This document shows, in pieces, positions 6,601-15,600 of a DNA stretch of 64,000 nucleotides (position 1 is its first letter; the number at the start of each line of letters is the position of its first letter). The stretch comes from Heterodontus francisci. Taxonomy: Eukaryota. The notes below the pieces were generated by a model, which worked only from the letters and a program-made list of their open reading frames with translations, had not been told where the DNA came from and searched no databases. The stretch lies in NCBI RefSeq assembly GCF_036365525.1, contig NC_090419.1:13907311-13971310 (forward strand). The letters run 5' to 3'. Made by a program: the position numbers and the translations under genes.

Positions 6601-9600
6601 TGGTGAGGACATAACTCAGAAGAAACTGGTAGCACCGCATCACAGTGGAAGGAAACTTTAGGTCAAAATTGGAGACGTTGGTACTAAATTTTCAAATATA
6701 TTTCTAAATCGACGCTAATCTCCAGCCATTCTTAACACCGGTCGGTGTCACTCAGAACATCTCAAGAATATTAGCTGTTTCGGTTTCCATAATTCCAGAG
6801 GCCTTTCCACCATGTACAAGTCAGGAGTGTGATGGAATACTCTCCACTTGCCTGGATGGGTGCAGCTCCAACAACACTCGAGAAGCTCGACACCATCCGG
6901 GACAAAGCAGCCCGCTTGATTGGCACCCCATCTACAAACGTTCACTCCCTCCACCACCGACGCACAGTGGCAGCAGTGCGTACCATCTACAAGATGCACT
7001 GCAGCAACGCACCAAGGCTCCTTAGACAGCGCCGCCCAAACCCGCGCCCTCTACCACCTCGAAGGACAAGGGCAGCAGGCGCGTGGGAACACTACCACCT
7101 CCAAGTCACACACTGTCCTGACTTGGAACTAGATCGGCCGTTCCTTCACTGTCACTGGGTCAAAATCCTGGAACTCCCTTCCTAACAGCGATGTGGGTGT
7201 ACCTACCCCACATGGACTGCAGCGGTTCAAGAAGGCAGCTCACCCACCACCTTCTCGAGGGGTAACTAAGGACACGCCACAAATGTCAGACTCGCCTGCA
7301 AAGCGCATATCCCGAGTGATTTTTTTTTTTTTAAATTAGACTTACTCTGATTGAAATTACTCTTAGTGATGGATATACTGACCATAATGTTGAGTTTGGA
7401 TAAAATCTCACTGTGCGCTATCCTAATCCCTTTGTTCAAATAAACAGGTTAATGCATGTGTCAAAATGATGAGGGCTTCCACTTGTACTCAGTAATGTGT
7501 GTTACAACTATCGCTGGGCGAGTTCGACCTGCTTCGTTACTGGCTCTCGTGAGTCATTCTCAATGTGCCTCTAAATTCTAGTTCCAACATTCTCCTGGAT
7601 GAGAATTTTGTGCCGAAGCTGGGAGACTTTGGACTGGCGCAGTTCAGCCGATACTCCAGCAACTCCGGTAAAAGCTGCACGGTGGCTCGGACACAGACGC
7701 TGCGGGGAACGCTGGCGTACCTTCCCGATGAGTACATCCAGAGTGGGCAGCTGACTGTGGAACTGGACACCTACAGCTTTGGGGTGGTAAGTGCAGACTT
7801 ACTAGCGCAGTGCCTGTCCTGGGAGTGTTTGACGGGGGACAGTGTAGAGGGAGCTTTACTCTGTATCTAACCCCCGTGCTGTACCTGTCCTGGTAGTGTT
7901 TGATGGGGGACAGTGTAGAGGGAGCTTTACTCTGTATCTAACCCCCCCATTTTTTAAAAAAATAACTTTATTAAAACCAGATAAATAAACAAAAAACTCA
8001 AATTAAAATGCCATTCTCGGCGTCGACGATGCACTCCAGTCCCTGCGGTGCCCACCGGTCGCGGAAGGCCTCAAGCGTACCGGCGGACACCGCATGCTCC
8101 TTTTCCAGGGACACCCGGGCGCGAACGTAACCGCGGAAGAGGGGCAGGCAATCGGGGAGGACGGACCCCCCGACGGCCCGCAACCTGGACCTGTGAATTG
8201 CCACCTTGGCCAGGCCCAGGAGCAGACCGACGAGGAGATCCTCCTCCCGGCCCAAGCCCCTCCGCACCGGGTGCCCAAAGATCAGGAGCGTGGGACTGAA
8301 GTGCAGCCAGAATTTGAGGAGCAGCCCCTTCAGATACTCAAATAGGGGCTGCAACCTCGCACACTCCGTATAAATGTGGAACACGGACTCGTCCAGGCCG
8401 CAGAAAGTACAGCTGGCCTGGGAGTCCGTGAACCTACTTAAAAGTCTATTGCACGGGACTGCTCTGTGCAGCACCCTCCACCCCAGGTCCCCGATGTAAA
8501 GGGGGAAGACTCCCGCGTGGAGAGACCTCCATCGGGTTTTCCCCTCACCGCCAGATGGCAACGCGGACCGCCAGGGCGTGTCCGGCCGGCTGACGAGGGC
8601 GAGGAAGTGGAGAGTGTGCAGGAGCAGCCCGTACAGGAAGCCCCTCCGCGCCGATTGGAATGGCACGGAGGGCATTTCCGAGAGGCGGCTCGGGTTGTGC
8701 GGGACCGGCTCCCGAGGAGGGTTTCGGGGCCTGGGTCCGATGAGCAGTTCCGGCCGAGCGGAGGTCAGCTCGGCCGGGATCGCTCCGCACTCCCGAGTCC
8801 CCTCGCCACCCGCAGTGAGGGACGTCCCGGGGGTTTCGGCTACTCCTCCGCCCGCCGGACCGTCCCCGGAGTCGGCCGCCCGGACAGCTGAGGCGCTCTC
8901 CTCCGCCGGCGGGGGAGCGCCCTGACTGGAGGCGACCATGTTCCAGACTCTGAAAAGATCCCGGTAAAAGACAGGCAACTCCCTCAGAGAGGCGCGGCTA
9001 ACGGACTCCACAGGGAGCTGCGTGTCGTCTTGAAGGCAGTGACGCTGGCGGAAAAAATACGTCGCCAGCGCACACCATCTGGGAGGACGCTCGACGTACA
9101 GGTATCTCTGCAGGGTCCGAAGGCGGAGAGTTGCAGCCTGGGTGCGGACGCACACCAGCGACTGACCGCCCTCCTCGATCGGGAGACCCAGGACCGCGGC
9201 AGAGACCCAGTGTTTCCTCTTGCCCCAGAAGAAATCGACGAGTTTCTTCTGGATCTTGGTGGCAAATACAGGGGGCGGGGCCAAAGTGACCAACCGGTAC
9301 CACAGCATGGAGGCCACCAGTTGGTTTATGACCAACGCTCGGCCCCTGTAGGAAAGCACTCGGAGCAGTCCTGTCCAGCGCCCCAGCCGAGCGGTGACTT
9401 TCGCCTCCAACTCCTGCCAGTTTGCCGGCCAGGCTTCCTCAGCGGGGCTAAGGTGGACTCCCAGATAGAGGAGGTGCGTGGTGCTCCACGCAAAAGGTGT
9501 CATCTCCTCCGGCAGGGAGTCCACCCGCCACTGACCAACCAGGAGTCCGGAACATTTCTCCCAATTGATCCTCGCGGAGGACGCGGCAGAAAAGGTCTGC

Positions 9601-12600: not shown

Positions 12601-15600
12601 TTTTGAGGCTGCCACAATGGCCGAGGGGCCGACAACCTCGGCCATTGCCTTTACACAGGCCTCTATAGACATATTGGGGTGGGGATAGCTCTTTACCCCA
12701 TGGCTTGAAGTAATTAATTTAAAAGGTGACGGGGTCACACGGGTGGCCACAGAGGCTACAGCCGCATAGGTATGAGAAGGCCCCGCCACCGGTGATGATG
12801 GGCTTGCCATGGCTCAAGAGCCAAACCCACCCCCAAATTGCAGGTAAGCAAACAAACAAAGAAACTAACTAGGAGGTTTGGGGAGAGGCTGAGGGTATAC
12901 AGGAAATGGGAAAGACAGGCTGCAAGCGATGACTTTGCTTTTTTTTCCCCTTAAAGGGTGGTACTCAGAGCACTGTAAACACTTCTGGTCTTCCGGTCTT
13001 CTGGTTGTGGGAGGGGTCTTCACCTGGGTCAGCCGAAAGCTGCCCAGGCTCTCGTTCGATCCTGATGTCTCTATTAGCCAGGCAGCTTCAGCTGACTCAG
13101 GCTGGGCAACTGGGGTGGGGAGGGAGCTTCCCTGCAACTTTAATGCAACTGCACAGCTCCCTACAGAATTGTATAGCCCCCACCCCTTGTTCTTCTGGCC
13201 TCTTTCACCTCCCACAACAGTCCAAATGAAATGAAAGCTTGGTGCTCGACACCCACCTCGAAATACAGCCTTTTTCAAAGTCTTTCCTCCTCTGCAGCAA
13301 AAGTTGTTGAAAAGTTTTTGCAGTTCCCTCCTCAGCAGCACCTCCAGCAACTGACTGCAGCACTGTCAGCTGCACCTTGTTGAGGCACTCAGCACTCAGT
13401 ATTCCCAATCAGAGAGGAGCCAATCCCTGTGCTGTACCTGTCCTGGGAGTGTTTGATGGGGGACAGTGTAGAGAGAGCTTTACTCTGTATCTAACCCCCG
13501 TGCTGTACCTGTCCTGGGGAGTGTTTGATGGGTCAGTGTAGAGGGAGCTTTACTCTGTATCTAACCCCCGTGCTGTACCTGTCCTGGGAGTGTTTGATGG
13601 GGACAGTGTAGAGAGAGCTTTACTCTGTATCTAACCCCCCCGTGCTGTATCTGTCCTGGGAGTGTTTGATGGGACAGTGTAGAGGGAGCTTTACTCTGTA
13701 TCTAACCCCGTGCTGTACCCGTCCTGGGGAGTGTTTGATGGGGACAGTGTAGGGAGAGCTTTACTCTGTATCTAACCCCCGTACTGTACCCGTCCTGGGG
13801 AGTGTTTGATGGGGACAGTGTAGGGAGAGCTTTACTCTGTATCTAACCCCCGTGCTGTACCCGTCCTGGGGAGTGTTTGATGGGGACAGTGTAGGGAGAG
13901 CTTTACTCTGTATCTAACCCCCGTACTGTACCTGTCCTGGGAGTGTTTGATGGGACAGTGTAGGGAGAGCTTTACTCTGTATCTAACCCCCGTACTGTAC
14001 CTGTCCTGGGAGTGTTTGATGGAGACAGTGTAGAGAGAGCTTTACTCTGTATCTAACCCTGTGCTGTACCTGTCCTGGGAGTGTTTGATGGGGACAGTGT
14101 AGAGGGAGCTTTACTCTATCTAACCCTGTGCTGTACCTGTCCTGGGAGTGTTTGATGTTGGTGGCTTGTGATGTTTTCAAATTGGCGTGAACATTGATAT
14201 AAACTTTGTGTGTGACCAGCGAGGCTTAATTTGAGCAGCCCCTGAAGGTGAAAGGTTTAAATGCTGCAGATGTCGACTGGAGATGTGTTGCAGTTTTGGC
14301 TTTAATACTGTGAGGGTAGAAGGAGGACGGGGACTGTGTTGGGTGGAGTATTTGATAGTATTTGATATGGAGTATTCCATAGCTGGAACTGGAATATTCC
14401 AAGGAGCAGCGACCACCCCAATATCGATAAAGAGGGGAGGCAAAAAGGGTTGAGGTGATGGCTGGGAGTAATGCAGAGCTTTACACACACAATATGGTGA
14501 CAGGCATCAGGGTTGTGTGGGTGGGTGGGCGAGGTGCGGTCTCACTCCCAAGGTGATGCCCGCCCCCTCGGGTGGACGAGGAAGATCCCACGGTCACCAT
14601 TTCAAAGGAGAGCCGGGGGATGGCGAGTGCGAGGGGACTTCTCTCCTTCCTCCCAAGTCCCGCGGAAGCGTTCGTCCCTCAGTCCCTGTCACTAAGGCAG
14701 ATTGTCTAGTGATTTATATCATTGCTGTTTGTGGGAGCTTGCTGTGCGCACACCGGGCTGCTGCATTTCCTGCACTGCGCCAGTGACGACACCTCAAAAG
14801 TGCTCCCTCGGCTGTAAAACGCTGTGGAAACCTCCTGAGGTTGTGATAGGCGCTGCAGAAATGCAAGTTTTTGCTTTACTAAGCGATTCCTTTCAATGGA
14901 CTTTTTTTTTTCTTTCTCTCTCTCTCGCTCTCTCCCTGTGTCTGTCTCTCGCTCTCTCCCTGTGTCTGTCTCTCGCTCTCTCCCTGTGTCTGTCTGTCTC
15001 TCGCTCTCTCCCTGTGTCTGTCTGTCTCTCGCTCTCTCCCTCTTGTCTGTCTCTCTCGCTCTCTCCCTCTTGTCTGTCTCTCTCGCTCTCTCCCTCTTGT
15101 CTGTCTCTCTCGCTCTCTCCCTCTTGTCTGTCTCTCTCGCTCTCTCCCTCTTGTCTGTCTCTCTCGCGCTCTCCCTCTTGTCTGCCTCTCTCGCGCTCTC
15201 CCTCTTGTCTGCCTCTCTCGCGCTCTCCCTCTTGTCTGCCTCTCTCGCGCTCTCCCTCTTGTCTGCCTCTCTCGCGCTCTCCCTCTTGTCTGCCTCTCTC
15301 GCGCTCTCCCTCTTGTCTGCCTCTCTCGCGCTCTCCCTCTTGTCTGCCTCTCTCGCGCTCTCCCTCTTGTCTGCCTCTCTCGCGCTCTCCCTCTTGTCTG
15401 CCTCTCTCGCGCTCTCCCTCTTGTCTGCCTCTCTCGCGCTCTCCCTCTTGTCTGCCTCTCTCGCGCTCTCCCTCTTGTCTGCCTCTCTCGCGCTCTCCCT
15501 CTTGTCTGCCTCTCTCGCGCTCTCCCTCTTGTCTGCCTCTCTCGCGCTCTCCCTCTTGTCTGCCTCTCTCGCGCTCTCCCTCTTGTCTGCCTCTCTCGCG

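Follow-up and report, generated by a model that had tools for sequence, protein, structure and literature searches.

Tx1 elements, long interspersed elements (LINEs) that have been placed beside L1 (PMC4640811, PMC3747384), insert into transposons, small nuclear RNA and 5S genes, microsatellites and satellites (PMC4494074). A Tx1 family counts as target-specific when one sequence type makes up more than 20% of its flanks, and both the placement of short interspersed elements (SINEs) at a Tx1 target and tandem inserts are known (PMC4494074), tandem insertion also being described for Utopia (PMC4640811, PMC3747384). The hairpin loop of the endonuclease is thought to read the minor groove (PMC1950540), and processed pseudogenes have been tied to the acceptance of poly(A) RNAs by L1 (PMC5753468). 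Here we describe a Tx1-clade family of the horn shark Heterodontus francisci, two copies of which lie in a 64,000-nucleotide stretch of contig NC_090419.1 (positions 13,907,311 to 13,971,310; hereafter the window). We are confident that this young family prefers one position of a dispersed minisatellite with a unit of about 70 base pairs (bp), that copies of host messenger RNAs (mRNAs) lie at the same position, and that the element's enzymes likely made both.

Both window copies split the unit at TCTAACCCCG, where poly(T) follows. Family copies and junctions were counted by exact sequence patterns in the shark's own genome (L numbers denote fetched genome stretches, C numbers genome contigs, and P0001 an open copy of the second open reading frame, ORF2). 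Exact matches to a 24-mer at the ORF2 stop put the family at 2,712 copies at least, of which the first 100, 63 on C1 and 37 on C2, were classed by hand: 46 are on target at one unit position, 40 are off target, and in 14 one junction is hidden, by a later insertion, by an inversion or because the fetched stretch stops short of it (the 3′ junction is unit-like in 11 of these). At the 5′ flank, a script detected the unit in 41 of the 46 on-target copies, a stacked poly(T) insert in three more, and the unit in none of the 40 off-target copies. The unit itself amounts to 24,467 exact 23-mers, about 0.03% of the 6.0-Gb genome, and even at 20 times this share the probability of 46 copies in 100 on target is near 1e-75. 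All 30 full-length 5′ ends inspected, of two types of untranslated region (UTR), either rejoin the unit (20) or meet a stacked later poly(T) insert (10); genome-wide, the same holds for 306 of 344 full-length 5′ ends on the plus strand, minus-strand counts being left out as inflated by double matches. An earlier sequence-only reading of the window had proposed that the family targets a dispersed minisatellite, and these figures support it: the unit is present in 46 of 100 flanks, above the 20% of PMC4494074.

Copies of host mRNAs cannot have brought the unit with them, and they are therefore the best evidence that it is a true target and that any poly(A) RNA is accepted there. L115 has, at the target, an insert led by poly(T) that encodes the C-terminus of ribosomal protein uS11, for which the genome holds 10 copies without introns besides a split parent gene. 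Seven of the ten lie at the target, one at a near match and two elsewhere (six of nine without L115). Since their 5′ ends differ and their changes relative to the parent are nearly all private, we treat them as separate events; one difference is common to all five copies spanning it, on and off target. Four further ribosomal-protein genes were chosen blind, and their on-target retrocopies number one of six for eL31, none of three for eL32, two of six events for eS26 and three of 12 events for eL33, in total 6 of 27 (six tandem duplicates of eS26 were taken as one event, as was one split copy, and two identical eL33 loci were taken as one). The number expected anywhere in the unit is 0.008-0.15 (unit share 0.03-0.6%). 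These six are 94-100% identical to their parents, and they belong to about 15 blind events that are tailed and at least 92% identical. Retrocopies at the target were found for four of five genes tested and in all five contig groups. Judging from the shared site, age and duplication, the family's own enzyme probably made them. The on-target rate of uS11 (7/10) is above that of the blind genes (6/27), and age accounts for part of this. Apparently full-length on-target retrocopies of uS11, eS26 and eL33 (L213, at G000:C39:20489165-20491338, L238 and L252/L253) have open frames of 167, 120 and 123 amino acids and are candidate retrogenes. In L241-L246 (G000:C17:68.94-69.18 Mb) one eS26 retrocopy occurs six times at a spacing of ~45-50 kb, a large tandem duplication.

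The poly(T) begins right after ...TCTAACCCCG in the unit, and from such junctions we read the nick position: the endonuclease would nick the C-rich strand between ...TCTAACCCCGT and GCTGTACC, and the terminal T would prime on the poly(A) tail. A second cut ~14 bp off gives rise to a duplication, which is present in 31 of 40 off-target copies (median 14 bp); truncated on-target copies show ~5-15 bp of duplicated unit (L003, L015, L016, L069, L070, L079), and a few show a deletion. The start of the poly(T) off target has T(1-4)G in 20 of 30 copies, compared with 10% at random, which matches the GT/GC step of the unit. Many events miss, landing at looser T/G sites as short copies. As to RNA, a poly(A) tail would be all that is needed, which would let spliced host mRNAs into the same site. 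Whatever their 5′ UTR type, full-length copies terminate in AGCC and then AA(T/C)CCC.G, and the AATCCC(A/C)G junction of such copies is used anew by later inserts. Repeated hits on this fixed junction build head-to-tail stacks; one of them, on C4, spans 21.6 kb and comprises three full-length copies together with a truncated one and further inserts. The C4 stack, L143, L149 and L162 were checked for co-transcription of upstream units at the 5′ end, and no full-length copy away from the target came to light that bears a clear duplication. Other poly(T)-led inserts at the target are unique or LINE-like (L091/L092, L097, L104, L112, L189, L197, L205, L206, L208); the one in L104 has a 14-bp duplication, and that in L112 resembles what we take to be antisense CR1-type sequence.

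The element also exports its target, since unit sequence lies between two poly(A) tails away from the target. This arrangement occurs in 19 of the 40 off-target copies, the carried piece ranging from 5-9 bases up to the 4.3 units of L064, in mid-C2, where the duplication is 11-13 bp; L040 carries 2 units with 30 unique bases, and L051 one unit. The structure of these copies shows that source copies in arrays are read through and plant unit pieces elsewhere. Transcripts run past the tail into the array and move unit pieces to on- and off-target sites alike. The first 30 of 1,824 exact matches to the unit-poly(T) junction lead straight to the element in six cases, to unit pieces and then the element in nine, to unit pieces alone in 10 (seven of them in one array) and to unique sequence in five. 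Re-use of an exported unit in place and serial transduction look the same at the loci studied. Mammalian L1 has duplications of similar length and 3′ transduction as well. We are evenly divided over a wider reading, in which a vertebrate retrotransposon needing only poly(A) on the RNA, yet aiming at one base of one repeat, has made this minisatellite the place where the genome's retrogenes gather, exported units have founded new target arrays, and the element would be a main disperser of the minisatellite across sharks. At L182-L188 (G000:C1:9681396-9682064) a tandem unit of ~46 bp, consisting of poly(T) and the right-hand half of the minisatellite unit, is repeated ~15 times within an array; it is an insertion product turned minisatellite.

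On the evidence of its sequence, the family is a young Tx1-clade retrotransposon without long terminal repeats. A natural copy with open frames, L086, has an ORF1 of 680 and an ORF2 of 1,245 amino acids; both ORFs are open in seven fetched copies, and young copies are 98-99% alike. In P0001 the endonuclease (Pfam Exo_endo_phos, 6-226), which matches L1 endonuclease structures, precedes the reverse transcriptase (RVT_1, 511-762). The separate ORF1 has one CX2CX4HX4C zinc knuckle, for which the Pfam zf-CCHC match is below cut-off (E 0.039). A reverse transcriptase tree, drawing on 28 of 120 listed homologues, places the family with Xenopus Tx1L (P0006) and turtle, sturgeon and ray sequences in a clade of seven entries with support of 100/100. 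The nearest named proteins are records from the horn shark, at 92% over 28% of the query, and from a stingray, at 74% over 35%, and the closest named full-length protein among the listed homologues is the Xenopus Tx1L ORF2 at 50% identity. Poly(A) tails, 5′ truncation and target duplication are all present in family copies, and diverged relatives of 83-90% identity occur in the same genome. The endonuclease hairpin loop reads WRSGGGG, four residues fewer than in the Tx1L, turtle and sturgeon proteins, and this short form was found in 42 of 42 family copies read. One body carries several distinct 5′ UTRs whose last bases are alike, AGCC before the junction (L071, L074, L076, L082, L086, L138, window 12811-13424 and L088:4019-4633), which suggests turnover of the 5′ UTR inside the family. 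Two facing element pieces of 60 bp and 827 bp in L089 (G000:C1:247888570-247891100) resemble a 5′ inversion during insertion.

Could the unit instead belong to the element's own 3′ tail, read-through carrying it along and the arrays being by-products rather than targets? The 19 off-target copies that hold unit pieces between poly(T) tracts inside one duplication would fit, as would the 10 of 30 junctions with orphan unit pieces and no element. We nevertheless hold this to be very improbable: copies of host mRNAs occupy the nick and have unit on either side, which largely refutes it as sole cause, the unit resumes behind 5′-truncated copies of only 30-400 bp, and 21 of the 40 off-target copies are without a unit piece. 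The 3′ transduction that the sequence-only reading had listed among the threats to its proposal thus does occur off target, but it fails to explain the pattern, because host mRNA copies cannot carry the unit and yet sit at the nick. Insertion might also be loose, at any T/G step, the pile-up in the unit reflecting a preference for chromosome ends and later loss elsewhere. All 46 on-target copies, with a median extent of 6,429 bp, do lie near contig ends, within C1 5.8-18.6 Mb or C2 212.9-225.9 Mb, and off-target copies, which fill the interiors, are short (median 210 bp), as selection against long copies could make them. In those same regions, however, on-target copies make up 46 of the 50 resolved ones, all with a single position and orientation out of 70, even though the window's high unit density is just 1.6%; nor could selection place retrocopies of 150-450 bp at a single base, and we find this explanation hardly credible.

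It is also unlikely that another LINE family makes the nicks and retrocopies, the present family being one passenger of several. The diverged relatives of 83-90% identity would be candidates, the link to this family's own enzyme being read from sequence, and a related Tx1 or L1 family may have made the retrocopies. Set against this are the open ORFs and near-identical copies of the present family, a T/G rule and duplication length common to on- and off-target copies, and the 94-100% identity of on-target retrocopies to their parents, which makes them as young as the family. Besides the possible foreign maker, several observations weigh against our preferred reading, targeting of the unit by this family. 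Because 40 of the 100 sampled copies lie elsewhere, we speak of a strong preference, not of strict specificity; 39 chromosome-interior places hold no on-target copy, 36 off-target ones and three with a hidden junction. The sample was classed by hand and covers C1 and C2 only, 100 of 2,712 copies. Nine of the 40 off-target copies show no duplication, and the scripted nick position is inconsistent between two analyses at a few loci. As for the retrocopies, uS11 was picked after one on-target copy had been seen, and 21 of the 27 blind events are off target, about half of them old (71-91% identity to the parent).

Other kinds of target were considered. Among Tx1 elements that target RNA genes, Keno inserts at U2 and other groups at 5S and tRNA genes; the shark unit is ruled out as an RNA gene, an Rfam search of 12800-14300 at E up to 1 giving no match. 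Microsatellites of the (TC)n, (TTC)n or (TTCC)n type, as used by Kibi and Koshi, were absent as targets from the inspected flanks. Telomere-repeat-targeting Tx1 elements occur in reptiles, and our literature search gave no paper on them; CTAACCC prompted us to consider telomeres here, and one CCCTAA junction pattern gave 0 matches in an assembly where telomeres may be poorly represented. Listed contigs of four other organisms have tandem units and element-like sequence, and none of them bridges a unit-element junction. An element copy (L049) and an eL31 retrocopy (L221) apparently share one position in another dispersed repeat, between CCTC and TTGTGGCACT, possibly a second preferred site.

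The features of the window are collected in Table 1. As the sequence-only reading had it, two copies of one Tx1-clade element lie in different genes, with their 3′ ends at the same unit site and in the same orientation; one of the host genes encodes a kinase, the other is an HCF gene with kelch repeats. The poly(T) of copy 1 is preceded by ...TATCTAACCCCCCCA, and the unit it splits restarts at 13425, as claimed. Copy 2 starts at 62129, preceded by ...GAACTAACCCGG, extends 4.6 kb beyond the window to a total of ~6.5 kb and likewise splits a unit, ending at L088:4633 with the unit back at L088:4634. No poly(T) insert interrupts the array at 59119-59305, in agreement with what had been said of 59120-59305. 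Two details needed correction: the unit measures 69-71 bp, not ~60 bp, and the 3′ end of copy 2, taken to lie directly after the unit's CTAACCC, does have a unit flank but also an extra 7-nucleotide CTAACCC between T tracts. This form recurs in many family copies and is probably a short 3′ transduction out of the source copy's own site.

Table 1. Features of the window (positions in the 64,000-nucleotide stretch)
Feature	Position	Strand	Pfam
Host kinase exon, immediately upstream of the array of copy 1	7583..7786	+	Pkinase
Minisatellite on the 3′ side of copy 1, 1.9 units, stopping at the nick	7812..7949	+	
Tx1-clade LINE copy 1, with both its ends, broken (short 3′ end, lesions in ORF1 and ORF2)	7950..13424	-	
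Copy 1 ORF2 from residue 515 to 1245, covering the reverse transcriptase and the C-terminal part, 97.5% identity to P0001	7998..10193	-	
Copy 1 ORF2 residues 1-199, apurinic/apyrimidinic (AP)-type endonuclease, shortened by deletion	10192..10785	-	
Copy 1 ORF1, three frame pieces, single CX2CX4HX4C knuckle	10821..12810	-	
Copy 1 5′ junction AATCCCTG, invariant among full-length copies of the family; usable target restored	13422..13429	+	
Minisatellite, 10.5 units, resuming beyond copy 1	13425..14157	+	
Minisatellite array free of insertion	59119..59305	+	
Host HCF kelch exon, immediately upstream of the array of copy 2	61555..61758	+	Kelch_HCF
Minisatellite, 3.9 units, stopping at the nick; 3′ flank of copy 2	61858..62128	+	
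Tx1-clade LINE copy 2, 3′ part in the window	62129..64000	-	
Copy 2 target piece CTAACCC between two T tracts	62137..62143	+	
Copy 2 3′ UTR block built from short GGGCC/GGCCC repeats; family members have 0 to 3 such blocks	62165..62250	-	

Copy 1 lacks ORF2 codons 200-514 and has two frameshifts within ORF1, copy 2 has frameshifts in both ORFs, and the 3′ hairpin block is present in copy 2 and absent from copy 1. The coding parts of the two are 90.5-92.9% identical, their lesions differ, their 5′ UTRs show patchy similarity, and their outer flanks share a single match of 112 bp at 74%, being otherwise unrelated. On the strength of the coding divergence, the patchy 5′ UTR match and the lone flank match we regard them as independent insertions; one segmental duplication linking the two loci, raised beforehand as an alternative, is ruled out by the same comparison. 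At the unit density of the window, the chance of two copies sharing one unit position and strand is ~1e-8. Between the kinase gene and the HCF gene lies a single-exon TMEM187 gene (47124-47996, minus strand), an order that presumably corresponds to the IRAK1-TMEM187-HCFC1 block. Other minisatellites of the window have units of 33 bp (6116-6252, 36794-37280, 44697-45057), another 33 bp (46087-46665), 69 bp (37563-38168), CA-rich 34-44 bp (27164-30305) and 27 bp (14920-15718).

A new Tx1 target would by itself be modest; host mRNAs at the same base and export of the target add weight. The element likely pastes copies into an aimed-at site and, in addition, takes parts of that landing pad along to other loci. 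This links two questions, by what route dispersed minisatellites spread and which LINE is the source of retrogenes in cartilaginous fishes; both become testable in one genome. Loose choice of RNA, tight choice of DNA and an unusually short loop together offer a natural case for studying site choice by LINE endonucleases and targeted gene insertion.

Target preference of Tx1 elements, satellites included, is known already; what appears to be new is the ~70-bp unit as target, target-directed host retrocopies and target export. Our literature search, made among openly accessible papers, gave no paper on a ~70-bp unit as target, on a Tx1 element exporting its target or on host retrocopies at a Tx1 target; a description of this family may be deposited in Repbase or Dfam. 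The closest relative, Tx1L of Xenopus laevis (UniRef YTX2, P0006), has an ORF2 50% identical overall and 64% in the reverse transcriptase region, and it too makes sequence-directed insertions into a multicopy repeat (PMC4494074). Its target, however, is the DNA transposon Tx1D, whereas that of the shark family is a tandem unit, and the shark endonuclease loop, four residues shorter, equals the R1Bm loop in length when compared with the residue counts of PMC1950540. The crocodilian Tx1-Mar with its SINEU (Kojima 2015, PMC4494074) is similar in that it prefers a dispersed repeat as target, forms tandem inserts about a single duplication, and has poly(A)-tailed non-autonomous RNAs placed at the same target; unlike the shark family it targets Mariner and has SINE passengers, and the accessible sections of that paper report neither spliced host mRNAs nor target export. 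Kibi, Koshi and the Tx1 families labelled 'Sat', which target satellites, resemble the shark family in having a tandem-repeat target (Fig. 3 of PMC4494074), but the targets of Kibi and Koshi are (TC)n and (TTC)n; the shark family may be identical to one of the 'Sat' families. Mammalian L1 likewise moves other RNAs that end in poly(A), and processed pseudogenes are among its products (PMC5753468). Unlike L1, for which a great many sites serve through the short consensus TTTT/AA (PMC1950540), the shark family sends ~40% of young retrocopies and 46% of its sampled copies to one position of one repeat.

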